NCBI RefSeq assembly: GCF_024700885.2
Contig: NZ_CP117016.1
From: Escherichia coli
GTDB taxonomy: Bacteria; Pseudomonadota; Gammaproteobacteria; Enterobacterales; Enterobacteriaceae
DNA: 64,000 bases
Direction: 5' to 3' (one strand)
Under the pieces are notes generated by a model, which was not told where the DNA came from, did not search any database, and saw only the letters and a program-made list of their open reading frames with translations. The position numbers were made by a program, and so were the translations under genes. Position 1 is the first letter of the stretch. Each line of letters begins with the position of its first letter. Shown piece by piece: positions 9,267 through 58,969 of the stretch.

Positions 9267-10145
9267 ATGTTTGATTTTGCTTCTTACCATCGCGCAGCAA
9301 CCCTTGCCGATGCCATCAACCTGCTGGCTGACAACCCACAGGCCAAACTGCTCGCCGGTGGCACTGACGTACTGATTCAGCTCCACCATCACAATGACCG
9401 TTATCGCCATATTGTTGATATTCATAATCTGGCGGAGCTGCGGGGAATTACGCTAGCGGAAGATGGCTCACTACGTATCGGCTCTGCAACGACATTTACC
9501 CAGCTCATTGAAGATCCTGTAACTCAACGTCATCTCCCAGCGTTATGTGCTGCGGCCTCGTCCATTGCCGGACCGCAGATCCGTAACGTCGCTACCTACG
9601 GTGGAAATATTTGCAACGGTGCTACCAGTGCAGATTCTGCCACGCCAACGCTAATTTATGACGCGAAACTGGAGATTCACTCCCCGCGCGGTGTTCGTTT
9701 CGTCCCGATTAATGGCTTTCACACTGGGCCGGGCAAAGTGTCTCTTGAGCATGACGAAATCCTTGTCGCCTTTCATTTTCCGCCCCAGCCGAAAGAACAC
9801 GCGGGCAGCGCGCATTTTAAATATGCCATGCGCGACGCAATGGATATTTCAACGATTGGCTGCGCCGCACATTGCCGACTGGATAACGGCAATTTCAGCG
9901 AATTACGCCTGGCATTTGGTGTTGCCGCGCCAACGCCAATTCGCTGCCAACATGCCGAACAGACTGCACAAAATGCGCCATTAAACCTGCAAACACTGGA
10001 AGCCATCAGCGAATCAGTCCTGCAAGATGTCGCCCCGCGTTCTTCATGGCGGGCCAGTAAAGAGTTTCGTCTGCATCTCATCCAGACGATGACCAAAAAA
10101 GTGATTAGCGAAGCCGTCGCCGCGGCGGGGGGAAAATTGCAATGA
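9267..10145 (+). CDS. xdhB: xanthine dehydrogenase, FAD-binding subunit
   Basis: 292-aa ORF of the CO-dehydrogenase flavoprotein family; immediately downstream of xdhA. Confidence 0.9.
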
Positions 10146-10621
10146 ATCACAGCGAAACAATCACCATCGAATGCACCATTAACGGGATGCCTTTTCAGCT
10201 TCACGCCGCACCAGGCACGCCGCTCTCGGAATTACTCCGCGAACAAGGACTGCTAAGTGTCAAACAAGGGTGCTGCGTGGGTGAATGTGGTGCCTGTACG
10301 GTGCTGGTCGACGGCACAGCAATAGACAGTTGCTTATACCTTGCCGCCTGGGCTGAAGGAAAAGAGATCCGCACGCTGGAAGGTGAAGCGAAAGGCGGAA
10401 AACTTTCTCATGTACAGCAGGCTTATGCTAAATCCGGCGCAGTGCAGTGCGGGTTTTGTACGCCTGGCCTGATTATGGCTACCACAGCAATGCTGGCGAA
10501 ACCACGCGAGAAGCCATTAACCATTACGGAAATTCGTCGCGGACTGGCGGGAAATCTTTGTCGCTGCACGGGGTATCAGATGATTGTAAATACAGTTCTG
10601 GATTGCGAGAAAACGAAGTAA
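10142..10621 (+). CDS. xdhC: xanthine dehydrogenase, 2Fe-2S subunit
   Basis: 159-aa ORF with Cys clusters [11 protein letters not shown] and CGFCTPG; ATGA overlap with the xdhB stop. Confidence 0.9.
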
Positions 10622-10626
10622 AAGGA

Positions 10627-10650
10627 TATCCGGCCTGAATTCAGGCCGGA
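10627..10650. terminator. bidirectional terminator-like perfect palindrome between convergent xdhC and ygeV
   Basis: ATCCGGCCTGAATTCAGGCCGGAT is a perfect 24-bp palindrome. Confidence 0.5.
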
Positions 10651-10660
10651 TTCACTGAGG

Positions 10661-12439
10661 TTATGTGTTTAACAACTCATATTTCTTAATCTTGCGATAG
10701 AGCGTAGCAATGCCGATGCCCAGTTCATCAGCAACTTGCTTCTTGCTGTTATGACGTGAAAGCGCCTCGCGGATCATTTGCTTTTCCATCTCCTCCAGCG
10801 CCGTGCCGCCCGCATCATCGAGTGCCAGGTGCGCCTCGTTGACCTCTGTTACATCACTTTGCTCCGTTGTGCCATTATTCAGCAGATTTGGCGGCAATAG
10901 CGTGCTGTCGATAACTTCACCTGAAGGAACCACGTTAACCAGATATTCCATCAAATTGCTTAACTCGCGCAGGTTTCCGGGCCAACGATGCTTACGCAAT
11001 ATTTCGACGACATCGGGAGCAATGCCCGGATAAACCGATCCCAGACGACGGGTATGCAGATGTAAAAAGTAATGCACCAGTAGTTCAATATCTTCCTGAC
11101 GTTCACGCAGCGGTGGCAGAGTTATCGGGATAACATTAAGTCGGTAGAAGAGATCTTCGCGGAATTTACCTTCGGCAATGAACTGGGCCAAATTCTGGTT
11201 AGTTGCAGAAATGATGCGAATGTCGACTTGTATTGGGCTACTGGCACCAATCGGCAGAATTTCACGCGCCTCAATAGCGCGCAGTAATTTAGCCTGCAAC
11301 ATTAATGGCATATCACCTATTTCATCGAGAAACAGCGTGCCCGTATTCGCCGCCTGAATCAACCCTGTTTTACCGTTGGCAGAAGCGCCAGTAAATGCGC
11401 CTTTAACATAACCGAACAGTTCGCTCTCCAGAAGCTGCTCCGGAATCGCGGCACAGTTGATAGCAATAAAGGGTTTATTCCGTCTTCCGCTCAACTTATG
11501 GATTGCACGGGCGACAACTTCTTTACCCGTGCCGCTTTCACCAACCACCATAACGCTGGATGGGCTGGGTGCAATACGGCTAATGAGTCGTTTTAATTGC
11601 CGCATAACACGGCACTCGCCAACCAATTGTTCAATATGCGGTTCATCAGGTGCATTTGCTACAGAAAAACTGGTATGCGATTGGTGAAACGCCATTAAAA
11701 ATAATTGTCGGCCCTGAATGTTATGCAATTGACCAATGATTAATTCACTTTTATCGTCCCACGAAACAATATGCTGCATATGTCCATGGGTAAAATTACT
11801 CTCAAATGTTAATGGTCTGAAACGGATAGGTTTCCCAATAATATTATTTTGTACAACACCAAGTGTTTTTAAGGCAGTCTGATTAACAAACTGAATCCGA
11901 TTATCGTCATCAACAACTAATACACCCTGATCCATATTATCGATCATGGTCGCGAATATTTTACTGATGTTATCTCCTGGTCCCTGATCCTCCAGAAGTT
12001 TCGAAACAAAAATGGTGGATATATGGCGAACGTAATCAGAAAATTCGCGTAAATTATCACTAATATGCTCTTGTTGCTCGTGGGTAACGGCAATCAAACT
12101 TATCACCCCAACACAACGATCCTGTAAAATGACAGGCGTACCCAGAAATGCTTTTTCGCGGCAATTTTCTTTACTATCGCAACCTTCGCAAAGGGGATCG
12201 AAGCGAGACTGTGTCACAACTTTTTCAGTTTTCGTTTCCAGGACGTGGCGGAGCAGGCGTGAGTTGCCGCTCAACTGGCGACCAAGAAACTTCCCATACG
12301 CGCCCGTTCCGGCGACGCGACACAAGTTTTCATCAACGATCTCAACCTCAAGCTGCAAAACGCTGGCAAGCATTCTGGCAAAACGCTGAATTGTCGGTTG
12401 AATTTGCATCAATACTGACTGCGTAGTAGCAAGCTCCAT
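10661..12439 (-). CDS. ygeV: sigma54-dependent transcriptional activator (bacterial enhancer-binding protein)
   Basis: 592-aa ORF with AAA+ Walker A GESGTGKE, the sigma54-contact motif GAFTGA, and a C-terminal helix-turn-helix. Confidence 0.9.
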   Translation of the reverse strand: MELATTQSVLMQIQPTIQRFARMLASVLQLEVEIVDENLCRVAGTGAYGKFLGRQLSGNSRLLRHVLETKTEKVVTQSRFDPLCEGCDSKENCREKAFLGTPVILQDRCVGVISLIAVTHEQQEHISDNLREFSDYVRHISTIFVSKLLEDQGPGDNISKIFATMIDNMDQGVLVVDDDNRIQFVNQTALKTLGVVQNNIIGKPIRFRPLTFESNFTHGHMQHIVSWDDKSELIIGQLHNIQGRQLFLMAFHQSHTSFSVANAPDEPHIEQLVGECRVMRQLKRLISRIAPSPSSVMVVGESGTGKEVVARAIHKLSGRRNKPFIAINCAAIPEQLLESELFGYVKGAFTGASANGKTGLIQAANTGTLFLDEIGDMPLMLQAKLLRAIEAREILPIGASSPIQVDIRIISATNQNLAQFIAEGKFREDLFYRLNVIPITLPPLRERQEDIELLVHYFLHLHTRRLGSVYPGIAPDVVEILRKHRWPGNLRELSNLMEYLVNVVPSGEVIDSTLLPPNLLNNGTTEQSDVTEVNEAHLALDDAGGTALEEMEKQMIREALSRHNSKKQVADELGIGIATLYRKIKKYELLNT

Positions 12440-12749
12440 AGCTTTACCTTCCAGACTTACTTAAAAGTCGATCATTGAAGACGTTGATGGTTCACAGATC
12501 ATGATGATATTAACTCAGGCGAAATTGGCTTTGATAAAAACATAAGATTTTTATCACTTTCTAATGAAATTATGGAAGAGATATCACATTTCTATATCAA
12601 TATGAGAATTACGGCGGTGAGTTTATCAAACTGAAGAGAGAGCGCCTGTTCCTTTATCTTATTTCTGATACTTAGCAGCAAATAAATAACGCGATAAAAA
12701 AAGCCAAACGTTTTCGTATTTTACAAACAACCAGAAGCTGGCATCAATT

Positions 12750-12765
12750 TGTGATCAACCCCACA
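12750..12765. promoter_or_regulatory. CRP-like site TGTGATCAACCCCACA upstream of ygeW
   Basis: TGTGA-N6-CCACA, 9 of 10 matches to the CRP half-sites TGTGA-N6-TCACA. Confidence 0.35.
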
Positions 12766-12808
12766 CATTACCCGTCAAATTAGTCTTTTGCAGCCGCTTG
12801 GATAATTC

Positions 12809-12823
12809 TGGCATAGTTATTGT
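12809..12823 (+). promoter_or_regulatory. candidate sigma54 -24/-12 element TGGCATAGTTATTGT upstream of ygeW
   Basis: GG at -24 spacing and TTGT in place of TTGC; about 90 bp upstream of the ygeW start. Confidence 0.3.
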
Positions 12824-12915
12824 TAGTCCCAGGTATAGCTGTGAAAAGACCAATCACTTTTGGCAAGTCACAGTGAAATAAACCTCTTTGCCTGTCATTC
12901 CACTACCGGGACTTT

Positions 12916-14106: not shown

Positions 14107-14163
14107 CCCCTCGGGCCGATCAGCTGGTCGGCCCTCTATTTCCAGAGGCCAAAAGGATAGGAT

Positions 14164-16629: not shown

Positions 16630-16646
16630 TTACTCTTCACTTATTC

Positions 16647-25500: not shown

Positions 25501-25632
25501 CAAAGCTGGGTGTTAAACATCGACAGCGAAGGTCAGTTCAACAACGAACCACCGGAGCTGAACGATATGTGCCGCATTATTAGCCATGTCCACCAGCATC
25601 ATCATTATCTGCTGGGCCGCGTGGAGGTGTAA
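22534..25632 (+). CDS. ygfK: large Fe-S / FAD-NAD(P) oxidoreductase (glutamate-synthase-beta-like domain), putative selenate reductase subunit
   Basis: 1032-aa ORF; Rossmann motif [21 protein letters not shown]; Cys clusters; AAGGAG Shine-Dalgarno. Confidence 0.85.
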   Translation: MGDIMRPIPFEELLTRIFDEYQQQRSIFGIPEQQFYSPVKGKTVSVFGETCATPVGPAAGPHTQLAQNIVTSWLTGGRFIELKTVQILDRLELEKPCIDAEDECFNTEWSTEFTLLKAWDEYLKAWFALHLLEAMFQPSDSGKSFIFNMSVGYNLEGIKQPPMQQFIDNMMDASDHPKFAQYRDTLNKLLQDDAFLARHGLQEKRECLQALPARIPTSMVEGVTLSTMHGCPPHEIEAICRYMLEEKGLNTFVKLNPTLLGYARVREILDVCGFGYIGLKEESFDHDLKLTQALEMLERLMVLAKEKSLGFGVKLTNTLGTINNKGALPGEEMYMSGRALFPLSINVAAVLSRAFDGKLPISYSGGASQLTIRDIFDTGIRPITMATDLLKPGGYLRLSACMRELEGSDAWGLDHVDVERLNKLAADALTMEYTQKHWKPEERIEVAEDLPLTDCYVAPCVTACAIKQDIPEYIRLLGEHRYADALELIYQRNALPAITGHICDHQCQYNCTRLDYDSALNIRELKKVALEKGWDEYKQRWHKPAGSGSRHPVAVIGAGPAGLAAGYFLARAGHPVTLFEREANAGGVVKNIIPQFRIPAELIQHDIDFVAAHGVKFEYGCSPDLTVEQLKNQGFHYVLIATGTDKNSGVKLAGDNQNVWKSLPFLREYNKGTALKLGKHVVVVGAGNTAMDCARAALRVPGVEKATVVYRRSLQEMPAWREEYEEALHDGVEFRFLNNPERFDADGTLTLRVMSLGEPDEKGRRRPVETNETVTLHVDSLITAIGEQQDTEALNAMGVPLDKNGWPDVDHNGETRLTDVFMIGDVQRGPSSIVAAVGTARRATDAILSRENIRSHQNDKYWNNVNPAEIYQRKGDISITLVDSDDRDAFVAQEAARCLECNYVCSKCVDVCPNRANVSIAVPGFQIRFQTLHLDAYCNECGNCAQFCPWNGKPYKDKITVFSLSQDFDNSSNPGFLVEDCRVRVRLNNQSWVLNIDSEGQFNNEPPELNDMCRIISHVHQHHHYLLGRVEV

Positions 25633-25634
25633 TC

Positions 25635-26963
25635 ATGTTGATTCTGAAGAATGTCACCGCAGTGCAGTTACACCCGGCGAAAGTGCAGGAAGGCGTTGAT
25701 ATCGCCATCGAAAATGATGTGATTGTCGCTATCGGCGATGCCCTGACGCAACGCTACCCCGATGCCAGCTACAAAGAGATGCATGGTCGGATTGTGATGC
25801 CAGGAATTGTCTGCTCGCACAACCATTTTTACTCGGGGCTGTCCCGCGGAATTATGGCAAACATCGCCCCCTGCCCGGATTTCATCTCAACGCTGAAAAA
25901 TCTCTGGTGGCGACTCGATCGCACCCTTGATGAAGAGTCGCTCTATTACAGCGGACTGATTTGTTCCCTGGAAGCGATTAAGGGCGGATGTACATCGGTT
26001 ATCGATCACCATGCCTCTCCGGCGTATATCGACGGGTCGCTCTCCACATTGCGCAACGCATTTTTAAAAGTTGGCCTGCGCGCGATGACCTGTTTTGAAA
26101 CTACTGACCGTAACAACGGTATCAAAGAGTTGCAGGAAGGTGTAGAAGAAAACATCCGCTTCGCCCGTCAGATTGATGAGGCGAAGAAAGCAGCAACCGA
26201 ACCGTATCTGGTGGAAGCACATATCGGCGCTCACGCGCCGTTTACCGTGCCGGATGCCGGTCTGGAGATGCTGCGTGAAGCCGTGAAAGCCACAGGTCGT
26301 GGTTTGCACATTCACGCTGCGGAAGACCTTTATGACGTTTCCTACAGTCACCACTGGTACGGCAAAGACCTGCTGGCACGACTGGCGCAATTCGATCTCA
26401 TCGACAGCAAAACGCTGGTCGCTCATGGGCTGTACTTGTCGAAAGATGACATCGCCCTACTCAATCAGCGCGATGCGTTCCTAGTGCATAACGCCCGTTC
26501 AAACATGAACAACCATGTCGGCTACAACCATCACCTTAGCGACATCCGCAATCTGGCGTTGGGAACTGACGGCATTGGTTCGGACATGTTTGAAGAGATG
26601 AAATTTGCCTTCTTTAAACATCGCGATGCGGGTGGTCCGCTGTGGCCTGACAGTTTTGCCAAAGCACTGGCTAACGGCAACGAACTGATGAGCCGCAACT
26701 TTGGCGCGAAATTTGGCCTTCTGGAAGCCGGTTACAAAGCCGATTTAACCATTTGCGATTACAACTCGCCGACACCGCTGCTGGCAGACAATATCGCCGG
26801 GCATATCGCTTTCGGTATGGGCTCAGGCAGCGTTCATAGCGTGATGGTCAATGGCGTGATGGTCTATGAAGACCGTCAGTTTAACTTCGATTGCGATTCC
26901 ATTTATGCGCAAGCCAGAAAAGCCGCTGCCAGTATGTGGCGTCGGATGGATGCGCTGGCATAA
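25635..26963 (+). CDS. ssnA: amidohydrolase-family protein (chlorohydrolase / aminohydrolase)
   Basis: 442-aa ORF with HxH metal-binding motif (SHNHF); directly follows ygfK. Confidence 0.85.
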   Translation: MLILKNVTAVQLHPAKVQEGVDIAIENDVIVAIGDALTQRYPDASYKEMHGRIVMPGIVCSHNHFYSGLSRGIMANIAPCPDFISTLKNLWWRLDRTLDEESLYYSGLICSLEAIKGGCTSVIDHHASPAYIDGSLSTLRNAFLKVGLRAMTCFETTDRNNGIKELQEGVEENIRFARQIDEAKKAATEPYLVEAHIGAHAPFTVPDAGLEMLREAVKATGRGLHIHAAEDLYDVSYSHHWYGKDLLARLAQFDLIDSKTLVAHGLYLSKDDIALLNQRDAFLVHNARSNMNNHVGYNHHLSDIRNLALGTDGIGSDMFEEMKFAFFKHRDAGGPLWPDSFAKALANGNELMSRNFGAKFGLLEAGYKADLTICDYNSPTPLLADNIAGHIAFGMGSGSVHSVMVNGVMVYEDRQFNFDCDSIYAQARKAAASMWRRMDALA

Positions 26964-27013: not shown

Positions 27014-27793
27014 ATGATTGAACAATTTTTCAGGCCCGACTCTGTCGAACAGGCGCTGGAACTGAAGCGCCGCTACAAGGATGAAGCCGTCTGGTTCGCC
27101 GGGGGCAGCAAACTCAACGCTACACCAACCCGTACCGATAAAAAGATTGCCATTTCCTTACAGGATCTGGAACTGGACTGGGTTGACTGGGATAACGGTG
27201 CACTGCGGATTGGCGCAATGTCTCGCTTGCAGCCACTGCGTGATGCGCGATTTATTCCTGCAGCACTGCGTGAAGCCCTCGGCTTTGTCTACTCTCGCCA
27301 TGTTCGTAATCAGTCGACCATTGGTGGTGAAATCGCCGCCCGGCAGGAAGAGTCTGTGCTGCTTCCCGTCCTGCTGGCACTGGATGCTGAACTGGTTTTT
27401 GGCAATGGCGAAACACTGTCAATCGAAGAGTACCTGGCCTGCCCATGCGATCGCCTGCTAACCGAAATTATCATTAAAGATCCGTATCGCACCTGTGCGA
27501 CCCGCAAAATTAGCCGTTCTCAGGCAGGTTTAACCGTCGTGACGGCAGCCGTTGCAATGACAGACCACGACGGTATGCGAATTGCGCTGGATGGCGTCGC
27601 CAGTAAAGCCCTGCGTCTGCACGATGTTGAAAAACAAAATCTGGAAGGCAATGCACTTGAACAGGCTGTCGCCAACGCCATTTTCCCGCAGGAAGATTTG
27701 CGGGGCAGCGTGGCCTATAAACGCTATATCACGGGAGTTCTGGTAGCCGACCTTTATGCCGACTGCCAACAGGCTGGGGAGGAAGCCGTATGA
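27014..27793 (+). CDS. ygfM: FAD-binding molybdopterin-dehydrogenase subunit-like protein
   Basis: 259-aa ORF; ATGA overlap with xdhD. Confidence 0.8.
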   Translation: MIEQFFRPDSVEQALELKRRYKDEAVWFAGGSKLNATPTRTDKKIAISLQDLELDWVDWDNGALRIGAMSRLQPLRDARFIPAALREALGFVYSRHVRNQSTIGGEIAARQEESVLLPVLLALDAELVFGNGETLSIEEYLACPCDRLLTEIIIKDPYRTCATRKISRSQAGLTVVTAAVAMTDHDGMRIALDGVASKALRLHDVEKQNLEGNALEQAVANAIFPQEDLRGSVAYKRYITGVLVADLYADCQQAGEEAV

Positions 27794-30660
27794 TCATCCA
27801 CTTTACTTTAAATGGCGCGCCTCAGGAGCTAACCGTTAATCCAGGCGAAAACGTGCAAAAGCTGTTGTTTAACATGGGAATGCACTCTGTACGCAACAGC
27901 GATGATGGATTCGGGTTTGCCGGTTCTGACGCAATTATCTGTAACGGTAATATCGTTAACGCGTCCTTGCTTATCGCCGCACAGTTAGAGAAGGCAGATA
28001 TTCGTACCGCAGAGTCTCTGGGCAAATGGAACGAGTTAAGTCTGGTTCAACAGGCAATGGTTGATGTTGGCGTGGTGCAGTCTGGTTATAACGATCCAGC
28101 TGCGGCTCTGATTATCACCGATCTTCTCGATCGCATTGCCACACCGACCCGCGAAGAGATCGACGACGCGCTTTCTGGTTTGTTCAGCCGCGATGCAGGC
28201 TGGCAACAATACTATCAGGTCATTGAACTGGCGGTTGCACGTAAAAATAATCCGCAGGCCACCATTGATATCGCTCCAACTTTCCGCGATGACCTTGAAG
28301 TCATTGGTAAGCATTATCCTAAAACTGATGCCGCGAAAATGGTGCAGGCGAAACCCTGCTATGTTGAAGACCGCGTAACGGCTGACGCCTGCGTCATTAA
28401 AATGTTACGTAGCCCACACGCTCACGCACTGATTACTCATCTGGATATCAGCAAAGCTGAAGCCTTACCGGGCGTTGTTCACGTTATTACTCACCTGAAT
28501 TGCCCGGATATCTACTATACCCCGGGCGGTCAGAGCGCACCGGAACCGTCACCGCTTGACCGCCGTATGTTCGGCAAGAAAATGCGTCACGTCGGCGATC
28601 GCGTTGCTGCGGTCGTCGCTGAAAGTGAAGAAATTGCGCTCGAAGCACTGAAGCTCATCGACGTTGAATATGAAGTGCTTAAACCTGTAATGTCGATCGA
28701 CGAAGCAATGGCGGAAGATGCGCCTGTCGTGCACGATGAACCGGTGGTGTATGTTGCTGGTGCGCCAGATACTCTGGAAGACGATAACAGCCATGCAGCC
28801 CAGCGCGGCGAACATATGATCATCAACTTCCCGATCGGTTCTCGCCCCCGTAAAAATATCGCCGCCAGTATTCATGGTCATATTGGCGATATGGACAAAG
28901 GCTTTGCCGATGCCGATGTGATCATTGAGCGAACCTATAACTCAACGCAGGCACAGCAGTGCCCGACTGAAACACATATCTGCTTTACCCGTATGGACGG
29001 CGATCGTCTGGTGATCCACGCCTCCACCCAGGTACCATGGCACTTACGCCGCCAGGTCGCGCGCCTCGTGGGCATGAAACAGCATAAAGTTCATGTCATT
29101 AAAGAGCGAGTTGGCGGCGGTTTTGGTTCCAAACAAGACATCCTGCTGGAAGAAGTGTGCGCCTGGGCAACCTGCGTGACCGGACGTCCGGTACTGTTCC
29201 GCTACACCCGTGAAGAAGAGTTTATTGCTAACACCTCTCGCCACGTCGCGAAAGTCACCGTCAAACTGGGCGCGAAAAAAGATGGTCGCCTGACGGCAGT
29301 GAAGATGGATTTCCGCGCCAACACGGGCCCTTACGGCAACCACTCACTCACCGTACCGTGTAACGGACCGGCGCTGTCGCTGCCGTTATATCCGTGTGAT
29401 AACGTCGATTTCCAGGTCACCACCTACTACAGCAACATTTGCCCAAATGGTGCTTATCAGGGTTATGGCGCGCCGAAAGGTAACTTCGCTATCACCATGG
29501 CATTAGCGGAACTGGCTGAACAGTTACAGATCGACCAGCTGGAAATTATCGAACGTAACCGTGTACACGAAGGGCAAGAGCTGAAAATTCTCGGTGCAAT
29601 CGGTGAAGGTAAAGCGCCGACCTCCGTTCCTTCCGCCGCCAGCTGCGCACTGGAAGAGATCCTGCGTCAGGGTCGCGAGATGATCCACTGGTCGTCACCG
29701 AAACCGCAAAATGGTGACTGGCACATCGGTCGCGGCGTCGCCATTATCATGCAGAAATCGGGTATCCCAGATATCGATCAGGCTAACTGCATGATCAAAC
29801 TGGAATCGGACGGCACCTTTATCGTTCATTCTGGCGGTGCGGATATTGGTACTGGTTTGGATACTGTGGTGACGAAACTGGCAGCAGAAGTGCTGCACTG
29901 CCCACCGCAGGACGTGCATGTTATCTCCGGTGATACCGATCATGCGTTGTTTGATAAAGGCGCATATGCCTCGTCCGGTACTTGCTTCTCGGGTAACGCG
30001 GCGCGTTTGGCAGCAGAAAATCTGCGGGAGAAAATTCTGTTCCACGGTGCACAAATGTTGGGTGAGCCAGTGGCAGATGTCCAACTAGCAACGCCGGGCG
30101 TCGTGCGCGGCAAGAAAGGCGAAGTTAGTTTCGGGGATATTGCCCATAAAGGCGAAACCGGCACCGGCTTTGGTTCACTGGTGGGAACTGGCAGTTATAT
30201 CACGCCTGATTTCGCCTTCCCGTATGGCGCAAACTTCGCTGAAGTTGCCGTCAACGCGCGTACGGGTGAAATCCGCCTGGATAAATTCTACGCCTTGCTG
30301 GACTGCGGTACACCGGTCAACCCGGAATTAGCATTGGGACAAATCTACGGTGCTACCCTGCGAGCTATCGGCCACAGTATGAGCGAAGAGATCATTTATG
30401 ACGCCGAAGGTCACCCGTTAACGCGTGATTTACGCAGTTACGGTGCACCGAAAATTGGTGACATTCCGCGTGATTTCCGCGCAGTGCTGGTGCCGAGCGA
30501 CGATAAAGTCGGCCCGTTCGGGGCGAAATCGATCTCGGAAATCGGTGTAAATGGCGCAGCTCCGGCGATTGCTACCGCAATTCACGATGCCTGCGGCATC
30601 TGGTTACGCGAATGGCATTTCACACCGGAGAAAATACTCACCGCGCTGGAAAAAATATAA
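27790..30660 (+). CDS. xdhD: fused molybdopterin-binding / Fe-S hydroxylase (xanthine dehydrogenase family)
   Basis: 956-aa ORF with GGGFGSKQD molybdopterin motif. Confidence 0.85.
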   Translation: MIIHFTLNGAPQELTVNPGENVQKLLFNMGMHSVRNSDDGFGFAGSDAIICNGNIVNASLLIAAQLEKADIRTAESLGKWNELSLVQQAMVDVGVVQSGYNDPAAALIITDLLDRIATPTREEIDDALSGLFSRDAGWQQYYQVIELAVARKNNPQATIDIAPTFRDDLEVIGKHYPKTDAAKMVQAKPCYVEDRVTADACVIKMLRSPHAHALITHLDISKAEALPGVVHVITHLNCPDIYYTPGGQSAPEPSPLDRRMFGKKMRHVGDRVAAVVAESEEIALEALKLIDVEYEVLKPVMSIDEAMAEDAPVVHDEPVVYVAGAPDTLEDDNSHAAQRGEHMIINFPIGSRPRKNIAASIHGHIGDMDKGFADADVIIERTYNSTQAQQCPTETHICFTRMDGDRLVIHASTQVPWHLRRQVARLVGMKQHKVHVIKERVGGGFGSKQDILLEEVCAWATCVTGRPVLFRYTREEEFIANTSRHVAKVTVKLGAKKDGRLTAVKMDFRANTGPYGNHSLTVPCNGPALSLPLYPCDNVDFQVTTYYSNICPNGAYQGYGAPKGNFAITMALAELAEQLQIDQLEIIERNRVHEGQELKILGAIGEGKAPTSVPSAASCALEEILRQGREMIHWSSPKPQNGDWHIGRGVAIIMQKSGIPDIDQANCMIKLESDGTFIVHSGGADIGTGLDTVVTKLAAEVLHCPPQDVHVISGDTDHALFDKGAYASSGTCFSGNAARLAAENLREKILFHGAQMLGEPVADVQLATPGVVRGKKGEVSFGDIAHKGETGTGFGSLVGTGSYITPDFAFPYGANFAEVAVNARTGEIRLDKFYALLDCGTPVNPELALGQIYGATLRAIGHSMSEEIIYDAEGHPLTRDLRSYGAPKIGDIPRDFRAVLVPSDDKVGPFGAKSISEIGVNGAAPAIATAIHDACGIWLREWHFTPEKILTALEKI

Positions 30661-34997: not shown

Positions 34998-35489
34998 TCA
35001 CAGAGGATTCTCACCGCTGGCAACAATACGCTGCTGGCGGACTCGCCTGAGTTCTCTTTCAGTAAGCAACTGCAGCGCCTGTGTTGGGCAAGATTCAACG
35101 CAGGCTGGCCCCTCTTCCCGCTGTTCACAGAGATCGCATTTCACGATTTGTTGCCGGGTATCCCCCGGCAACGACTGAATGGTGATCATTCCAAACGGGC
35201 ACGCACTGACGCAACTCTGACAGCCAATACAACGGGCAGAATTGGTCTGCACCACCTGCTCGCCCATCGTCAGCGCCCCCACGGGGCAAGCGCCAACACA
35301 AGGGGCGTTTTCACACTGATGGCACATCACCGGCGCACTGATGCTGTCCAGTCGCTGTACCTTCAGCCGGGGTAAAAAGACATCGGCATTCAACTCCTGT
35401 TCTGAAGGGTGAGCGACCACACAGGCTACTTCACAAGTACGGCAGCCAATACAGTCAGCCGGATTAACGATAATTAACGATTTCATCAC
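34998..35489 (-). CDS. ygfS: 4Fe-4S ferredoxin-type protein
   Basis: 163-aa ORF with several CxxCxxCxxxCP motifs. Confidence 0.85.
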
Positions 35490-37405
35490 GATGCCTTCGT
35501 ATCAAACAGAGTTAACATATCGCGCGCCGCCTGCCTTCCTGCGGCCATTGCAGTGACAACCAGATCCGCGCCATGAACTGCATCACCACCAGCAAAGACT
35601 TTTTTCAGATGCGTCTGGGTAGGTAAATACCCGACGTCACCGGTTTGAATCAGGCCCCATTTATCGAGTTTAATTCCGCTGCCCTGCAACCACGGCATGG
35701 CATGCGCCTGGAAACCAAAGGCCATAATGAGAACATCGGCGGGCAATTCAAACTCTGAACCCGCTACCGGACGAGGACGACGGCGACCATCCGGCCCCGG
35801 CTCCCCCATGGCGGTACGAATCAGGCCCACTGCAGTTAAACGCCCATCTTCGTCACAAGCGATATATTGCGGCTGAACATTGAACTGAAACTCGACACCT
35901 TCCTCGCGCGCATTGACCACCTCTTTGCGCGAGCCCGGCATACTGACTTCATCACGACGATACGCGCAGGTCACGCTGGCGGCATTGAGGCGGATGGAGG
36001 TCCGCAAACAATCCATGGTCGTATCGCCACCGCCCAATACCACGACTCGCTTACCTTCCACATCCGTCAGCGGATACTCTTCAGACTCCGGCAACCCCAT
36101 GAGCTGGCGGGTATGGGCAGTCAGGAACGGTAGAGCCTGAATGACACCGGGCGCATCTTCATGCGGCAGATCTGCTCGCATCATCCCGTAAGTCCCCACG
36201 CCGATGAAAACTGCATCATATTCAGAAGTTAAATCGCTAAAGGTAATATCGCGGCCAATTTCACAGTTAAGATGAAAGTCGATTCCCATTGCGGTGAATA
36301 TCTCTCGCCGCTGGCTTAATACCGTTTTATCGAGTTTGAAAGGAGGTATGCCAAAAGTCAGCATACCGCCAATTTCTGGATGGCGATCAAAGACATCAAC
36401 CTGAACTCCTGCGCGCGCCAGAATATCAGCACACCCTAACCCTGCAGGCCCTGCGCCAATCACCGCCACTTTTTCGATACGGGGAACAACTTTGCTGACA
36501 TCGGGACGCCAGCCCATCGCCAGCGCGGTATCGGTGATGTAGCGTTCCAGATTCCCGATAGAGACTGCGCCAGAGTGATCTTTCAAAGTACATGCGCCTT
36601 CACAAAGACGGTCCTGTGGACATACCCTGCCGCAGATTTCTGGTAAGGAACTGGTCTGGTGGCAAAGTTCTGCCGCTTCAATAATCTTTCCTTCCTGCAC
36701 CAGACGGATGTAATCCGGAATAGCGTTATGCAGCGGGCAATGCCAGTTGCAGTTAGCTTTTTCGGCGCAATAAACACAGCGGTCACTCTCATAAGTCGCT
36801 TGTTGTGGATCCAGCCCGTAATAGATTTCGCCAAAGTGGGTTTTCCGTTCACTCGCTGAAATGTTATCTGCGCCTTTACGCGAGTTAACGGGGAGCAACG
36901 CTGCACTGCGAGATGGCTGAGCGTCTGATGACGCTTTTCCTGCTGCCGTTTTGCGCTGGCGGGCCACCTTTATCTGCTGCAACCCTTTATCGTCCATCAG
37001 CCGTAACGCCTGTGTTGGGCAGACTTCAATACAGGCTTGCGTGCCGGAACTGCGCTGGTTACAAAGGTCGCATTTCTGCGCAATCGTATCGACCATCTCA
37101 ACGACGCCAAAGGAGCAAGCGATTGCGCATCTTTTACAACCAATACATTTTTGCTCGTCCAGTTGTACGCTATCGGGCTGGAAAGTCAGAGCATTAACCG
37201 GACAAGCCGTAACGCAAGGGGCATTGTTGCAGTGATGGCAGGCCACCGGATTCGCAGCCTGGCCTTTCCCTACAACGTGGATACGCGGTCGAAAGTCACT
37301 GTGACTCAGCGGCCAGTTTTCTTGATTATGTGCCATCGCACAGGCAATTTCACAAGCATGACAGCCTATACATTCCGCAGCTTCAGCAGCGATAAACTTA
37401 TTCAT
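35486..37405 (-). CDS. ygfT: Fe-S / FAD-NAD(P) oxidoreductase (glutamate-synthase-beta-like)
   Basis: 639 aa from MNKFIAAE...; ferredoxin Cys motifs plus [21 protein letters not shown]; alternative start at 37420. Confidence 0.85.
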
Positions 37406-37840: not shown

Positions 37841-39289
37841 ATGAGCGCCATAGATTCCCAACTTCCCTCATCTTCAGGGCAAGATCGCCCAACTGATGAG
37901 GTTGACCGCATATTATCACCAGGAAAGCTGATCATACTCGGTCTGCAACACGTCCTTGTCATGTACGCAGGTGCAGTCGCTGTTCCTCTTATGATTGGTG
38001 ACCGACTGGGCCTCTCAAAAGAAGCTATTGCGATGCTCATTAGCTCGGATCTCTTTTGCTGCGGGATCGTCACATTATTGCAATGTATCGGTATCGGCCG
38101 CTTTATGGGGATCCGCCTGCCGGTGATTATGTCGGTGACCTTCGCCGCTGTAACACCAATGATAGCCATTGGGATGAACCCGGATATCGGCCTGCTGGGG
38201 ATATTCGGTGCCACTATCGCCGCGGGTTTTATCACCACATTATTAGCGCCACTTATCGGTCGCTTGATGCCTTTATTCCCGCCACTGGTTACCGGTGTGG
38301 TTATTACTTCTATCGGACTTAGCATCATTCAGGTGGGTATTGACTGGGCCGCAGGAGGTAAAGGGAATCCGCAATATGGTAATCCCGTTTATTTAGGTAT
38401 CTCCTTTGCCGTCTTAATTTTTATCTTGCTCATTACTCGCTATGCGAAAGGATTTATGTCCAACGTCGCCGTATTACTGGGGATTGTATTTGGCTTTTTA
38501 CTTTCGTGGATGATGAATGAAGTCAATTTATCCGGGCTACATGATGCTTCATGGTTTGCGATTGTCACGCCGATGTCATTTGGTATGCCGATTTTCGATC
38601 CCGTTTCCATTCTGACCATGACTGCCGTGTTAATCATCGTGTTTATCGAGTCGATGGGGATGTTCCTGGCACTGGGTGAAATAGTCGGTCGTAAACTCTC
38701 TTCACACGATATTATTCGCGGGCTGCGTGTCGATGGCGTAGGGACAATGATAGGCGGAACGTTTAACAGCTTCCCCCACACGTCATTTTCACAAAACGTT
38801 GGCCTGGTTAGCGTGACGCGCGTTCATAGCCGCTGGGTGTGTATTTCTTCGGGAATTATATTAATCCTGTTTGGCATGGTGCCAAAAATGGCGGTGCTGG
38901 TCGCCTCCATTCCGCAATTTGTGCTGGGCGGTGCTGGGCTGGTGATGTTCGGCATGGTACTGGCGACAGGAATTCGAATTCTGTCGCGCTGTAACTACAC
39001 CACCAACCGTTACAACCTCTATATTGTGGCGATCAGTCTCGGCGTTGGCATGACTCCGACGCTCTCTCACGATTTCTTTTCTAAGTTACCGGCCGTACTG
39101 CAACCGTTGCTGCATAGCGGCATTATGCTCGCAACCCTTAGCGCCGTTGTGCTGAACGTCTTCTTTAATGGCTATCAGCATCATGCTGATCTGGTGAAGG
39201 AATCCGTCTCTGATAAAGATTTAAAAGTCAGGACAGTACGTATGTGGCTTCTGATGCGCAAGCTGAAGAAAAATGAGCATGGAGAATAA
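37841..39289 (+). CDS. uacT: uric acid permease (NCS2/NAT family)
   Basis: 482 aa from the ATG at 37841 (MSAIDSQLPSS...) with AAAGGAG upstream; ORF-track extension from 37712 rejected. Confidence 0.85.
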   Translation: MSAIDSQLPSSSGQDRPTDEVDRILSPGKLIILGLQHVLVMYAGAVAVPLMIGDRLGLSKEAIAMLISSDLFCCGIVTLLQCIGIGRFMGIRLPVIMSVTFAAVTPMIAIGMNPDIGLLGIFGATIAAGFITTLLAPLIGRLMPLFPPLVTGVVITSIGLSIIQVGIDWAAGGKGNPQYGNPVYLGISFAVLIFILLITRYAKGFMSNVAVLLGIVFGFLLSWMMNEVNLSGLHDASWFAIVTPMSFGMPIFDPVSILTMTAVLIIVFIESMGMFLALGEIVGRKLSSHDIIRGLRVDGVGTMIGGTFNSFPHTSFSQNVGLVSVTRVHSRWVCISSGIILILFGMVPKMAVLVASIPQFVLGGAGLVMFGMVLATGIRILSRCNYTTNRYNLYIVAISLGVGMTPTLSHDFFSKLPAVLQPLLHSGIMLATLSAVVLNVFFNGYQHHADLVKESVSDKDLKVRTVRMWLLMRKLKKNEHGE

Positions 39290-39290
39290 T

Positions 39291-39416
39291 ATGAATCTTT
39301 TAATGCGCGCTATATTCAGTCTGTTGTTGCTTTTTACTCTCTCTATTCCTGTCATTTCTGACTGTGTTGCAATGGCCATTGAAAGTCGCTTCAAATATAT
39401 GATGCTGCTTTTTTAA
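39291..39416 (+). CDS. yqfG: small hydrophobic protein, 41 aa (MNLLMRAIFSLLLLFTLSIPVISDCVAMAIESRFKYMMLLF)
   Basis: Not in the ORF track (<60 aa); GGAG about 6 nt upstream; K-12 has a small gene yqfG near idi (from memory). Confidence 0.45.
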   Translation: MNLLMRAIFSLLLLFTLSIPVISDCVAMAIESRFKYMMLLF

Positions 39417-41647: not shown

Positions 41648-41656
41648 GTTGGTTCC

Positions 41657-42755
41657 TCATAACCCTGCTTTCAAACTTGCTTCGATAAATTGATCCAGGC
41701 TGCCGTCCAGCACGGCCTGCGTGTTGCGGGTTTCTACCCCGGTACGCAGATCTTTAATGCGGGAGTCATCAAGGACATAAGAACGAATCTGGCTGCCCCA
41801 GCCGATATCAGATTTATTATCTTCCATCGCCTGTTTCTCGGCATTTTTCTTCTGCATCTCCAGTTCATAAAGCTTCGCTTTCATCTGCTTCATGGCCTGG
41901 TCTTTGTTCTTGTGCTGGGAACGGTCGTTCTGGCACTGGGTCACGATCCCGGTCGGGATGTGGGTAATACGCACCGCAGATTCGGTACGGTTAACGTGCT
42001 GACCGCCCGCGCCGGACGCGCGATAAACGTCGATGCGCAGATCCGCCGGGTTGATTTCGATATCAATATCGTCATCAACTTCCGGGTAAACAAACGCGGA
42101 GCTGAACGACGTGTGGCGACGACCGCCGGAGTCAAACGGGCTCTTACGCACCAGGCGGTGAACGCCAGTTTCTGTACGCAGCCAGCCGTAAGCGTAATCG
42201 CCGGAGATTTTGATCGTCACGGATTTAATACCCGCCACTTCACCTTCCGACTCTTCGATGATTTCAGTTTTGAAACCACGCGATTCTGCCCAGCGCAGAT
42301 ACATACGCTCAAGCATGCTCGCCCAGTCCTGTGCTTCCGTACCACCAGACCCCGCCTGAATATCGAGGTAGCAGTCGGCGCTGTCATATTCGCCAGAGAA
42401 CATACGGCGGAACTCAAGCTGCGCCAGTTTTTCTTCCAGAGCGTCGAGTTCAGCAACGGCTTCGTTAAAGGTTTCTTCGTCGTCAGCTTCTACAGCCAGT
42501 TCCAGCAGACCAGAAACATCTTCCAGCCCCTGTTTCATTTGGTCAAGGGTGTCGACAACGGCTTCGAGGGAGGAACGCTCTTTACCCAGCGCCTGTGCGC
42601 GTTCGGGTTCGTTCCAGACATCCGGCTGTTCCAGCTCGGCGTTTACTTCTTCCAGACGCTCTTTCTTGGCGTCATAGTCAAAGATACCCCCTAAGAACGT
42701 CGGAGCGTTCCGTGAGGTCCTGAATGCGATTATTTACCGGATTAATTTCAAACAT
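41657..42755 (-). CDS. prfB: peptide chain release factor 2, requiring a programmed +1 ribosomal frameshift
   Basis: N-terminal [12 protein letters not shown]... starts at 42755; frameshift site CTT TGA C at 42677-42683 (minus strand) preceded by the internal Shine-Dalgarno AGGGGG; downstream frame is the 41657..42538 ORF. Confidence 0.95.
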
Positions 42756-46888: not shown

Positions 46889-47555
<667 letters not shown>

Positions 47556-54492: not shown

Positions 54493-54610
54493 GAGCGATG
54501 GTTCCTGAAACGTGCAGTGAATTGTGAACCTCTCTCCTTGCGAAGAGAGTGAGGGTGAGGCGTAAAAGTTCCTCACCCTGATCCTCTCCCGCAGAAGAGG
54601 AATAAAGCCG

Positions 54611-55000: not shown

Positions 55001-55023
55001 CAATCAATCTCCAAAAAAGTAAA

Positions 55024-56118
55024 TCACGCGACGGCTTTACCGTTACGCACAAAAACAGGTTTCGTCACTTTAACCGGCATTTCACGGTTGCGAATTTGCA
55101 CAATCGCTGTTTCACCAATACCTTCCGGCACGCGCGCCAGCGCAATGCTGTAACCCAGCGTCGGGGAGAAAGTCCCGCTGGTGATAATGCCTTCATGCTG
55201 GTTGCCCTGCGCATCGGTAAAACGTACCGGCAGTTCATTACGCAGCACGCCTTTTTCGGTCATCACCAGACCAACCAGTTTTTCTGTGCCATGCTCACGC
55301 TGCACTTCCAGGGCTTCACGACCGATGAAGTCACGATCTGCCGGTTCCCAGGCGATAGTCCAGCCCATATTGGCGGCTAAAGGAGAGATGGTTTCGTCCA
55401 TCTCCTGACTATAAAGATTCATACCCGCTTCCAGACGCAGCGTGTCACGCGCGCCCAGGCCGCATGGCTTAACGCCCGCTTCCACCAGCGCACGCCAGAA
55501 ATCGGCCGCTTTTTCATTGGGCAGCGCAATTTCGTAGCCCGCTTCACCGGTGTAACCGGTGGTGGCAATAAACAGATCGCCCGCCTGCACGCCAAAGAAC
55601 GGTTTCATCCCTTCCACCGCCTGACGCTGGGTGTCATTAAACAGTGTGGCAGCTTTTGCCTGCGCATTCGGCCCTTGTACGGCGATCATGGAAAGGTCAT
55701 CACGAACGGTAATTTCGATGCCGAAAGGTTCAGCGTGTTGGGTAATCCAGGAGAGGTCTTTTTCGCGGGTGGCGGAGTTAACAACGAGGCGGAAGAAATC
55801 TTCAGTAAAGTAGTAGACGATGAGGTCATCTATCACACCGCCAGAGGCATTCAACATCCCCGAGTAAAGGGCTTTGCCGCTTTTGGTGAGTTTCGCCACA
55901 TCGTTCGCCAGCAGATAACGCAAAAACTCCCGGGTGCGGCTGCCGCGAAGATCGACGATGGTCATATGTGACACATCAAACATTCCGGCATCGGTACGTA
56001 CCGCATGATGTTCGTCGATTTGCGAACCGTAATGCAGCGGCATCATCCAGCCGTGGAAATCCACCATGCGAGCGCCGCAAAGCGTGTGTTGTTCGTATAA
56101 AGGAGTCTGTTGTGCCAT
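55024..56118 (-). CDS. gcvT: aminomethyltransferase, glycine cleavage T protein
   Basis: 364 aa from [11 protein letters not shown]... with AGGAG Shine-Dalgarno; ORF-track extension to 56241 rejected. Confidence 0.95.
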
Positions 56119-56565
56119 CTTGTCCTCATTGAATAAGCGGGGCTGACAACTTTTCCATGGCGAAATTATCACCACGAAACCCAGCATCGGAGCCACTCCC
56201 GGTCCCCAACGCAATCGTTCTCTTTTGCCTGAACTTACCACCGAAACAGACTGTTAACCATAAGGTAAAATTGATCATCACATTAGCTTATGGTTAAAAA
56301 ACGCCAAAATCGCAACAGAATAAAAAACCAAAAAATGAACAAATCTCTATATAAAGATAAACAAATGAGAAACTTAATTTGAATAAAGCAATATTAAGAA
56401 CTGAAAAAATGTCAAAAAACACTAAATCAAAAATTCGTGACATTAGAAAATATAATGCGAAAACGGAGGTGAAATTAGTTTATTTCAAATGAGGAAAATC
56501 TCCCGGCGAAAAAACCGGGAGATGAAAGTGTGATGGGTATCAAATAAACAACAGAGGAGAAATTT
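56119..56565 (-). promoter_or_regulatory. gcvTHP promoter / upstream regulatory region (AT-rich)
   Basis: 447-bp intergenic region upstream of gcvT; known from the literature to carry GcvA, Lrp, PurR and CRP sites, which were not mapped individually here. Confidence 0.5.
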
Positions 56566-57768
56566 TTAACGCAGCCATTCAGGCAAATCGTTTAATCCCA
56601 TTGCCTGGCGGATAAGTTGTGGTTTAACGCCAGGAAGCGTGTCGGCCAGTTTCAGACCAATATCACGCAGCAGTTTTTTCGCCGGATTAGCCCCGGAAAA
56701 CAGATCGCGGAATCCCTGCATACCAGCCAGCATCAGCGCCGCACTGTGCTTACGGCTACGCTCATAGCGACGCAGGTAAATGTACTGCCCGATGTCTTTA
56801 CCCTGACGATGCAACCGTTTCAGTTCGGCAATCAGCTCTGCGGCATCCATAAAGCCGAGATTAACGCCCTGCCCCGCGAGCGGGTGAATAGTATGCGCGG
56901 CGTCGCCCACCAACGCCAGACGGTGTGCGGCAAACTGGCGGGCATAACGCCCCGTCAGCGGGAACACCTGACGCTCGCTCTCAACCTTGCATAAGCCCAG
57001 GCGATTATCAAAAGCGATATTTAACGCGCGATTAAATTCGTCTTCACTTGCCTGCTGCATCCGCTGCGCTTCCTCTGGCGACAGTGACCAGACAATCGAG
57101 CAAAGATGCGGATCGCTAAGCGGTAAAAAGGCCAGAATGCCTTCGCCATGGAAAACCTGCCGCGCCACCGCATCATGCGGTTCTTCCGTGCGAATGGTCG
57201 CTACCAGCGCGTGATGCTGATAATCCCAGAAAGTCAGCGGAATATCGGCTTTGTTGCGCAACCAGGAATTAGCGCCGTCCGCGCCAATCACCAGACGCGC
57301 CGTTAACATGCTGCCATCTTTCAGCGTCAGGAAGGTTTCATTTTCTCCCCAGGCGACCTGCTGTAATTCTGCGGGGGCTAACAGAGTGATATCTGACGAC
57401 TGATGTGCTTTGTTCCACAGCGCGTAGTGAATCACTGAATTTTCAACGATATGCCCAAGATGGCTATAGCCCATGCTTTGATCGTCAAACGAAATGTGAC
57501 CAAAACTGTCTTTGTCCCACACTTCCATACCGTGATAACAACTGGCCCTACGAGAGAGAATGTCCTGCCAGACGCCAAGACGGGTGAGTAATTTTTCGCT
57601 GGCGGCATTGATAGCCGAAACGCGCAGTTGTGGTGGTGCATCCGCCGCCAGAGGTTCCGGTACGCGCTGCTCCAGTACGGCAACGCGTAAGCCGCTCCCC
57701 TGTAAGCCGCAGGCAACCGCCAGCCCCACCATGCCGCCGCCAACAATGGCTACATCAACACTTTGCAT
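56566..57768 (-). CDS. ubiI: FAD-dependent 2-octaprenylphenol hydroxylase
   Basis: 400-aa ORF with N-terminal GGGMVG dinucleotide-binding motif. Confidence 0.9.
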   Translation of the reverse strand: MQSVDVAIVGGGMVGLAVACGLQGSGLRVAVLEQRVPEPLAADAPPQLRVSAINAASEKLLTRLGVWQDILSRRASCYHGMEVWDKDSFGHISFDDQSMGYSHLGHIVENSVIHYALWNKAHQSSDITLLAPAELQQVAWGENETFLTLKDGSMLTARLVIGADGANSWLRNKADIPLTFWDYQHHALVATIRTEEPHDAVARQVFHGEGILAFLPLSDPHLCSIVWSLSPEEAQRMQQASEDEFNRALNIAFDNRLGLCKVESERQVFPLTGRYARQFAAHRLALVGDAAHTIHPLAGQGVNLGFMDAAELIAELKRLHRQGKDIGQYIYLRRYERSRKHSAALMLAGMQGFRDLFSGANPAKKLLRDIGLKLADTLPGVKPQLIRQAMGLNDLPEWLR

Positions 57769-57790
57769 TGTTTATTCCTTAAAACCGCCT

Positions 57791-58969
57791 TCAACGCGCC
57801 ACCCAACCGAGGGTGCGCTGCGCCAGCACATCGCGTGCCGGGGTAAATAATTCCATCGTCATCAGCCCGATGTTGCGCCCGACAACCAGCGGGGTCCAAC
57901 GGTTGGCAAAAAGATGTACAAGGCTGTCCGTGACGCCGATGGTTGCTTCGCGATCGCTCTGTCGACGCTGCTGATAACGGCACAATACGCCGTAATCACC
58001 CATGTCTTCTCCGCGCTCCTGCGCCTGAGTCAGAGTTTCTGCAAGGCTCATCACATCACGCATACCGAGGTTGAACCCTTGCCCGGCGATGGGGTGCAGA
58101 GTTTGCGCCGCATTGCCCACCAGCACAGTGCGATGGGTAATCGGTCTGGCGGCGCGGGTTAATGCCAGCGGATAAGCACTGCGTTTACCAGCGTGGGTAA
58201 TTTTCCCAAGTCGCCAGCCAAAGGCCGACTGGAGTTCACGGCAAAACTTCTCGTCGCTCCACGACAGCACCTCTTCGCGCCGTTCCAGTGGATGACACCA
58301 GACCAGCGAACAGCGTCCGTCAGACATCGGCAACATCGCCAGCGGGCCATGTTGCGTAAAGCGTTCAAAAGCGCGCCCTTCATGCGCAACGGAAGTCGCA
58401 ACGTTGGCAATCACAGCCAGTTGTTCGTAAGGCTCCTGCTGCCAGTCAACGCCGCACACAGTGGCTAACGCTGAATGGGTGCCATCAGCGGCTACCAGCA
58501 CGCGGCCCGTCAGCGTTTCGCCACACTCCAGCGTCACTTCAACATGACTCTGAGTACGGGCAACGTTAGCCACGCGATCCGGGCAATGCAGCGTTACGCC
58601 AGGTGCTTTGCGCAGCAATGCAAACAGCCGTTGCCCGACATTGTGCAATTCGACAACCTGTCCCAGCGCCGCCAGTTGGTAATCTTCTGCGGCGAGGGTG
58701 ACGAATCCGGCATGACCACGATCGCTGACATGCACGGTAGTGATGGCGGTTGCGCAATCAGCCAGAGATTGCCAGACGCCGATGCGCGCCAGTTGCTGAC
58801 AGGTACCCGCCGCCAGCGCTATCGCTCGTCCATCAAAGCCCGGATGAGCATGTGACTCTGGCGCAGTCGCTTCAATCAAATGTACCGGCAGCGCCCCGTG
58901 ACTTAACCGGGAAATAGCCAGCGCCAGCGTCGCGCCCGCCATGCCGCCACCGACGATGATTACGCTCAT
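57791..58969 (-). CDS. ubiH: FAD-dependent 2-octaprenyl-6-methoxyphenol hydroxylase
   Basis: 392-aa ORF with GGGMAG motif. Confidence 0.9.
   Translation of the reverse strand: MSVIIVGGGMAGATLALAISRLSHGALPVHLIEATAPESHAHPGFDGRAIALAAGTCQQLARIGVWQSLADCATAITTVHVSDRGHAGFVTLAAEDYQLAALGQVVELHNVGQRLFALLRKAPGVTLHCPDRVANVARTQSHVEVTLECGETLTGRVLVAADGTHSALATVCGVDWQQEPYEQLAVIANVATSVAHEGRAFERFTQHGPLAMLPMSDGRCSLVWCHPLERREEVLSWSDEKFCRELQSAFGWRLGKITHAGKRSAYPLALTRAARPITHRTVLVGNAAQTLHPIAGQGFNLGMRDVMSLAETLTQAQERGEDMGDYGVLCRYQQRRQSDREATIGVTDSLVHLFANRWTPLVVGRNIGLMTMELFTPARDVLAQRTLGWVAR

Follow-up and report, generated by a model that had tools for sequence, protein, structure and literature searches.

Stop/start overlaps at four gene junctions of the kduI to serA region in Escherichia coli and their relation to translational coupling

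Results

Four junctions where stop and start codons overlap

The 64-kb window analyzed here, i.e. the whole stretch of DNA under study, covers the Escherichia coli chromosome from kduI to serA. At four junctions, xdhB/xdhC, ygfM/xdhD, ygfT/ygfS and pepP/ubiH, the upstream gene's stop codon overlaps the start codon of its downstream neighbor. The RefSeq annotations of strains SMS-3-5 and K-12 MG1655 were carried over to window coordinates. In RefSeq SMS-3-5 and K-12, the two members of each pair are neighboring protein-coding genes with the same orientation, and a direct check in window coordinates found proper start and stop codons for all eight genes. Positions 9000-12000 match SMS-3-5 (NC_010498.1) and related genomes at 100% identity, and an alignment of all 64 kb to SMS-3-5 shows 99.5% identity and 11 gaps. 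The full-length identity and the 11 indels indicate that the window comes from a strain related to but different from SMS-3-5, or is a mosaic. In this comparison, the annotated position of yqeF is offset by 1 nucleotide (nt) and that of serA by 12. The overlaps and the associated Shine-Dalgarno (SD) motifs are listed below, with overlaps given as negative spacings.

10127..10133, + strand: SD-like G-run GGGGGGA in the last xdhB codons, 8 nt 5' of the xdhC ATG
10142..10145, + strand: ATGA made of the xdhC start ATG (10142-10144) and the xdhB stop TGA (10143-10145), a -4 overlap read from the sequence
27776..27783, + strand: strong SD motif GGGGAGGA within codons for Gly-Glu-Glu at the 3' end of ygfM, 6 nt 5' of the xdhD ATG
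27790..27793, + strand: ATGA combining the stop of ygfM with the start of xdhD, a -4 overlap likewise read from the sequence
35483..35489, - strand: GTGATGA, with the ygfT stop TGA at 35488..35486, a further in-frame TGA at 35485..35483 and, as the ygfS start, the ATG at 35486..35484
58966..58969, - strand: ATGA (TCAT on the + strand) made of the ubiH start ATG (58969..58967) and the pepP stop TGA (58968..58966), a -4 overlap with pepP upstream

A sequence-only reading had reported 4-nt ATGA overlaps at all four junctions and read them as implying that the subunit pairs are expressed in a tightly coupled and stoichiometric way. Its positions at xdhB/xdhC (10142-10145) and ygfM/xdhD (27790-27793) are exact both by sequence and by the RefSeq gene ends (xdhB 9267-10145, xdhC 10142-10621; ygfM 27014-27793, xdhD 27790-30660). 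The 4-nt ATGA at 58966-58969 is likewise present on the minus strand (RefSeq ubiH 57791-58969, pepP 58966-60291), with the gene order reversed from ubiH/pepP, as pepP is the upstream gene. The remaining junction does not have the reported form and is described separately below.

Overlaps of this kind could in principle be annotation artefacts with the true start codons located elsewhere, an explanation that is highly improbable here. At xdhC, xdhD and ubiH, no in-frame start codon lies between the preceding stop and the ATG, and the upstream stop codons are unambiguous. Pfam domains begin close to the N-termini, with the FAD-binding (flavin adenine dinucleotide) domain of UbiH starting at residue 2 and the Fer2 domain of XdhC at residue 12. 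The GXGXXG motif of UbiH starts at residue 7, which makes a later ubiH start impossible. Orthologues of other genera share the position of the initiator Met for xdhC and xdhD, and the same holds for ygfS. We therefore rejected an artefact at xdhB/xdhC, ygfM/xdhD and pepP/ubiH on the basis of first in-frame ATGs, domain starts and orthologue N-termini. Ambiguity exists only at ygfS (GTG at 35489 or ATG at 35486), yet both choices overlap ygfT. The possibility raised with the initial reading, that reassigned start codons would make the overlaps disappear, did not hold for xdhC, xdhD and ubiH.

Frequency of overlaps in the window

The ATGA tetramer occurs 628 times in the window, counting both strands, so that its presence alone is uninformative and its position at a gene boundary is the non-random part. 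A spacing of exactly -4 was found in 3 of the 32 same-strand adjacent pairs of coding sequences (P ~0.003, assuming uniform spacing over -20..+60 nt), and -4 is known from the literature as the commonest gene spacing in E. coli. Spacings of -8..+6 nt characterize 7 of the 32 pairs (22%) compared to 707 of 2987 pairs genome-wide (24%, published), hence the window is typical of E. coli. All four overlaps have already been tabulated for K-12, with xdhB-xdhC, ygfM-xdhD and pepP-ubiH at -4 and ygfT-ygfS at -1 (Huber 2023 Table S2, PMC10666635).

The two molybdenum hydroxylase junctions

As a measure of SD strength, we predicted how strongly the 20 nt 5' of each start codon pair with the 16S rRNA 3' end, and the median predicted anti-SD duplex among the 48 starts of the window was -6.1 kcal/mol. 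RNA folding was predicted from -70 to +50 around the same 48 starts, and such local predictions are weak evidence in either direction. The predicted anti-SD duplex of xdhC is strong compared to the window median (-9.4 kcal/mol), and the folding prediction gives it an initiation region that is less paired than the median. The duplex of xdhD, at -11.3 kcal/mol, is the second strongest of the 48, and its initiation region is the third most paired, with an in silico unpaired probability of 0.33 against a median of 0.48. Both junctions carry a purine-rich SD within upstream codons that are conserved, encoding Gly-Gly-Lys or Gly-Glu-Glu.

The ATGA at xdhB/xdhC was kept in 6 of 6 orthologous loci examined (Citrobacter amalonaticus, Klebsiella aerogenes, Atlantibacter, Morganella, Edwardsiella and Aeromonas), over a range of XdhC identity down to 64%. 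Residues 2-8 of XdhC are free to vary among the orthologues, with N, T, R or M at residue 2, and the XdhB tail is variable too. Codon 2 of xdhC nevertheless always starts with A (AAT, ACT, AGA or ATG). A GGAGG-type motif lies within conserved A-G-G-K/E codons of the XdhB orthologues. The Pfam domains of XdhB (FAD_binding_5 and CO_deh_flav_C) and XdhC (Fer2 and Fer2_2) are complementary modules of the xanthine oxidase family, and the nearest solved relatives of XdhC are small iron-sulfur (FeS) subunits of heteromeric molybdenum hydroxylases (4zoh, 3hrd, 1t3q, 1n5w, 5g5g). Medium FAD subunits of such heteromers are likewise among the best PDB relatives. In eukaryotic xanthine dehydrogenase (XDH), XdhB/XdhC-type modules are fused into a single chain. 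Judged by the complementary modules and the solved homologous heteromers, the assignment of XdhB and XdhC as a subunit pair appears sound.

Upstream of this junction, xdhA and xdhB are separated by +10 nt (9257-9266), and the orthologous spacings are +5 in Morganella, +6 in Edwardsiella and an 8-nt overlap in Aeromonas. The prfB/lysS spacing in the window is +9 nt (41648-41656). Both xdhA/xdhB and prfB/lysS fall into a small E. coli-specific peak of spacings at +9..+12 nt (Huber 2023, PMC10666635).

A genome scan with YgfM recovered 20 loci, to which K. aerogenes was added separately. The ygfM/xdhD ATGA was kept in all 19 Enterobacteriaceae loci (18 from the scan plus K. aerogenes). The 18 scan loci belong to Escherichia, Citrobacter, Kluyvera, Klebsiella indica, Atlantibacter, Trabulsiella and Pluralibacter, and their YgfM proteins are as little as 72% identical. 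Two Photobacterium loci carry TAAccATG (+2) in place of the ATGA. The last residues of YgfM vary across loci (AV, IA, VV, IQ or LA), and the motif GGRGARGA is kept at the ygfM 3' end in orthologues. YgfM contains FAD_binding_5, and XdhD contains Fer2_2, a hammerhead domain and MoCoBD_1/2, which jointly make up a complete module set according to Pfam and relatives in the PDB. YgfM and XdhD co-purify, and the preparation reduces urate to 2,8-dioxopurine, a reaction other than the oxidation of xanthine (PMC12507026). We consider the assignment of YgfM and XdhD as a subunit pair to be sound. Huber 2023 Table S2 scores ygfM-xdhD as "no complex" (PMC10666635), a score that is out of date given the later co-purification.

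In K. aerogenes, xdhABC is followed directly by ygfM-xdhD, ~400 nt past xdhC (locus 2388-3480), compared to a distance of ~17 kb in E. coli, and the two molybdenum enzyme operons are therefore neighbors in this species. One locus, on contig NZ_JAUFQN010000014.1 ("Flavobacterium paronense" tig00000263, 7.6 kb), consists of ygfM-xdhD DNA that resembles E. coli and contains frameshift errors; the contig is very likely a contaminant in a Flavobacterium assembly.

A probably derived one-nucleotide overlap at ygfT/ygfS

The claim of a 4-nt ATGA overlap at 35486-35489 for ygfS/ygfT failed on inspection of the sequence. The plus strand reads TCAC at these positions, which corresponds to GTGA on the minus strand, and the RefSeq ends (ygfS 34998-35486, ygfT 35486-37405) leave an overlap of 1 nt (TGATG). 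An ATGA is physically present at 35483-35486 and yet is not the operative stop/start overlap of the pair. A 4-nt overlap at 35486-35489 fits only the GTG start at 35489 of the longest open reading frame (ORF), for which the sequence would then be GTGA. We rejected this GTG as the ygfS start, as it is missing in Escherichia albertii and Pseudocitrobacter, the ATG and the following N-terminus are conserved, and the SD spacing favors the ATG. The codon preceding the ygfS ATG is GCA or AAA in E. albertii (YgfS 83% identical) and Pseudocitrobacter (60%), and the MKS/MKA N-terminus is kept.

Both E. albertii and Pseudocitrobacter carry a true ATGA at ygfT/ygfS, with YgfT tails ending in ...SQ* and ...QK*, and by parsimony the E. 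coli state looks derived. The sequence TCG TGA TGA at this position is found in E. coli, in another Escherichia species and in one metagenomic contig. The E. coli ygfT stop thus looks to have moved one codon earlier, shifting the spacing from -4 to -1 and turning the former TGA into the second of two tandem stops. The predicted SD of ygfS is weak (-3.3 kcal/mol) and its initiation region is unremarkable in folding. YgfS resembles 4Fe-4S dicluster ferredoxins, and YgfT combines its own N-terminal ferredoxin-like domain with a GltD-like flavoprotein part. The literature describes YgfT and YgfS as HydN/YsaA paralogues and does not report a complex between the two. The -1 overlap and its tandem stop matter when genes for urate degradation are to be recoded or refactored, as in probiotics engineered to be uricolytic.

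The pepP/ubiH overlap joins unrelated enzymes

PepP (AMP_N and Peptidase_M24) is an M24 Xaa-Pro aminopeptidase, and UbiH (FAD_binding_3) is a flavin monooxygenase of ubiquinone synthesis. The genes ygfB-pepP-ubiHI are given as a single operon (PMC11376589), and Huber 2023 Table S2 (PMC10666635) gives pepP-ubiH the score "CMPLX not". PepP and UbiH are unrelated enzymes that share no complex and merely belong to the same operon. The initial view that the overlapping genes encode subunit pairs hence applies to XdhB/XdhC and YgfM/XdhD, does not apply to PepP/UbiH, and lacks support in the literature for YgfT/YgfS. An ATGA overlap as at pepP/ubiH is no sign that the two products belong to one complex.

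The predicted SD of ubiH is weak (-3.0 kcal/mol) and its initiation region is more open than the window median. For conservation of pepP/ubiH we relied on a published table of COG pairs, in which COG0006@COG0654 (PepP-UbiH) has a median spacing of +1 with a q1 of -4 and a q3 of +18 (n=237; Huber 2023, PMC10666635). The spacing differs between genomes, hence the overlap is not a fixed trait of the pair.

Discussion

Since the 1980s, the literature has described short overlaps of stop and start codons and linked them with translational coupling, for which spacings of -4 and -1 are the classic geometry. All four junctions are ordinary overlaps inside operons, located in the purine/urate catabolism region of E. 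coli and in the ygfB-pepP-ubiHI operon. ATGA (-4) accounts for three of them and TGATG (-1) for the remaining one; the phenomenon is textbook knowledge and the pairs themselves were already tabulated. Only the derived TGA-TGA at E. coli ygfT/ygfS and the cross-genus conservation of the molybdenum enzyme overlaps with their embedded SD motifs are mildly new. Beyond annotation hygiene, the significance of the overlaps is small.

Translation is probably coupled across the four junctions, most plausibly by reinitiation aided by an SD inside the upstream gene. A ribosome ending at the upstream TGA would sit right over the downstream AUG. The terminating ribosome or its 30S subunit, held by an SD in the last upstream codons, could then re-initiate after a backward shift of 1-4 nt. 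The terminating ribosome may also hold the initiation region open so that a new 30S subunit can bind. Synthesis of the downstream protein would then depend on and scale with translation of the upstream gene. These two routes, termination-reinitiation and de novo initiation, are the current models of coupling (review PMC12548453). At the four junctions, the stop-to-start distances (-4, -4, -4 and -1) all fall inside the coupling range of about -8..+10 nt defined by Huber 2023 (PMC10666635), and the overlaps leave no intergenic space for a terminator and a promoter. The Rfam search found an RNA element at none of the four junctions.

The overlaps could also reflect compact packing of genes without a coupling function, each downstream gene being initiated de novo at its own ribosome binding site (RBS). 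Under packing, overlaps would arise easily by mutation, since an ATG followed by A always offers a TGA, and would persist since shifting either codon alters a protein end. We regard such packing as possible but rather doubtful. Native E. coli pairs with 4-nt overlaps were coupled in reporters in 4 of 5 cases (Huber 2019, PMC6728339), and coupling was almost lost with an added spacer of ~20 nt (Huber et al.), both of which speak against packing. Heteromeric subunits are 4.5-fold enriched at spacings of -8..+10 nt (Huber 2023, PMC10666635), which likewise weighs against packing. The ATGA at xdhB/xdhC is kept from E. coli to Aeromonas though the flanking residues vary freely. Finally, the SDs inside the upstream ORFs are strong at xdhC and xdhD and weak at ygfS and ubiH, where they fall in the bottom quartile of the window, so that independent initiation of the latter two would be poor.

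Several points weigh against coupling by reinitiation, and some of them also count in favor of packing. A literature search gave no experiment or ribosome-profiling value for the four pairs, and the tables of Burkhardt 2017 contain pepP and ygfB and not ubiH or the xdh genes. Depletion of the ribosome recycling factor (RRF) leaves the ratios of downstream to upstream ribosome density unchanged, overlapping pairs included, and the authors favor de novo initiation (Saito, Green and Buskirk 2020). Among five E. coli overlap pairs put to the test, bioBF alone showed no coupling, and the contribution of the SD ranged from essential to none across the tested pairs even if its removal usually lowered coupling (Huber 2019, PMC6728339). 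The 4-nt peak arises in neutral simulations without selection, where 4-nt and then 1-nt overlaps rank as the most frequent. Without the A after the ATG, XdhB would become 37 codons longer, YgfM 6 and PepP 2. The A is therefore needed to keep the upstream stop, and its conservation reflects a constraint on the arrangement and no proof of selection for coupling. The strong SDs of xdhC and xdhD could serve independent initiation, as packing would have it. The shift of ygfT/ygfS from -4 to -1 within Escherichia and the variable spacing of pepP/ubiH, where matched amounts are unneeded, fit packing as well.

Coupling without any handover of ribosomes is a further alternative, in which the finishing ribosome melts RNA structure masking the downstream RBS and a fresh 30S subunit initiates. 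Such unfolding is favored for several classical pairs and fits the RRF depletion data (review PMC12548453; Saito 2020), and the initiation region of xdhD ranks high in predicted pairing among the 48 starts. The xdhC and ubiH regions are more open than the median and that of ygfS is unremarkable, which argues against unfolding as far as the weakly informative local folding predictions go. At spacings of -4 or -1, the terminating ribosome blocks the start site until its departure (review PMC12548453), and the steep distance dependence of coupling is hard to account for by unfolding alone. We consider unfolding alone to be an unlikely explanation of the four junctions.

Under reinitiation, the consequences of coupling would differ among the pairs. 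XdhB/XdhC and YgfM/XdhD form modules of molybdenum hydroxylases with fixed ratios, so that coupling would favor a matched supply of subunits. They are also the two junctions with a strong internal SD and cross-genus conservation of the overlap. An equimolar supply would suit both enzymes. At pepP/ubiH, the overlap would have no stoichiometric meaning and may tie the weakly initiating ubiH to translation of pepP. The -1 overlap of E. coli ygfT/ygfS would be a derived variant of an ancestral ATGA. The original claim of tightly coupled stoichiometric expression is plausible from geometry as regards coupling and over-reaches as regards tightness, given the uncoupled bioBF overlap and a coupling of only 1.7- to 7-fold in reporters (Saito 2020).

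A more far-reaching proposal is that the ATGA junctions of the molybdenum hydroxylases were selected for co-translational assembly of the FAD, FeS and molybdenum subunits and that the TGA-TGA at ygfT/ygfS is an adaptive retuning from -4 to -1 rather than drift. We find this combination improbable. If there were selection for co-assembly, breaking an overlap without changing the proteins would cut the yield of active XdhABC or XdhD-YgfM. Synthetic operons that separate the molybdenum enzyme genes may alter subunit ratios.

The geometry of the junctions resembles known systems in several respects. The -4 and -1 pairs studied by Huber (PMC6728339, PMC10666635) share the geometry, the organism and the internal SD in the upstream ORF. 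The pairs tested experimentally in those studies were other ones, namely hyfHI, astDB, ydbH/ynbE, menDH and bioBF. Subunit genes also typically overlap in other molybdenum hydroxylase operons (CoxSML/CutSML, PaoABC, NdhFSLM and XdhAB of Rhodobacter capsulatus). Among COG pairs of molybdenum hydroxylases, median spacings are -4 for CutS-CutB and -3.4 for both CutB-CoxL and CoxL-CutS (Huber 2023 table, PMC10666635). In terms of modules, XdhB and YgfM correspond to FAD subunits, XdhC to the [2Fe-2S] subunit and XdhD to a fused FeS/molybdenum subunit. The gene order varies among such systems; here, FAD precedes FeS in one operon and the FeS/molybdenum fusion in the other. The classical E. coli pairs trpE-trpD, trpB-trpA, rplK-rplA and the atp genes likewise have short or overlapping operon junctions, with downstream synthesis partly dependent on upstream translation. 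For the classical pairs the evidence is direct, with measured coupling of 1.7- to 7-fold, whereas coupling at the pairs here is inferred from sequence geometry.

Other features of the window

Additional gene pairs of the window overlap or nearly abut. A 20-nt same-strand overlap, longer than those of the initial reading and absent from its list, joins sdhE and ygfX (47277-47296, minus strand), with ygfX starting with GTG. Near-abutting pairs are ygfK/ssnA, with TAAtcATG at +2 (25630-25637), and uacT/yqfG at +1 (39287-39293). The ssnA initiation region is the most paired of the 48 starts in silico and is a candidate for unfolding-type coupling. The small convergent genes yqfG (+) and yqfH (-) share 4 nt at the 3' ends (39413-39416).

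Between yqeH and the tRNA-Gly gene glyU (4476-5790), the window contains only IS1A (4689-5386). K-12 carries a ~10.8-kb ETT2 type III secretion remnant (yqeI ... ygeQ) at the same spot, which appears to have been deleted or replaced in the window. The 6S RNA gene ssrS (61434-61617), the SibC antitoxin RNA opposite ibsC (62266-62416) and the programmed +1 frameshift of prfB (41657-42755) are all expected features of the region.

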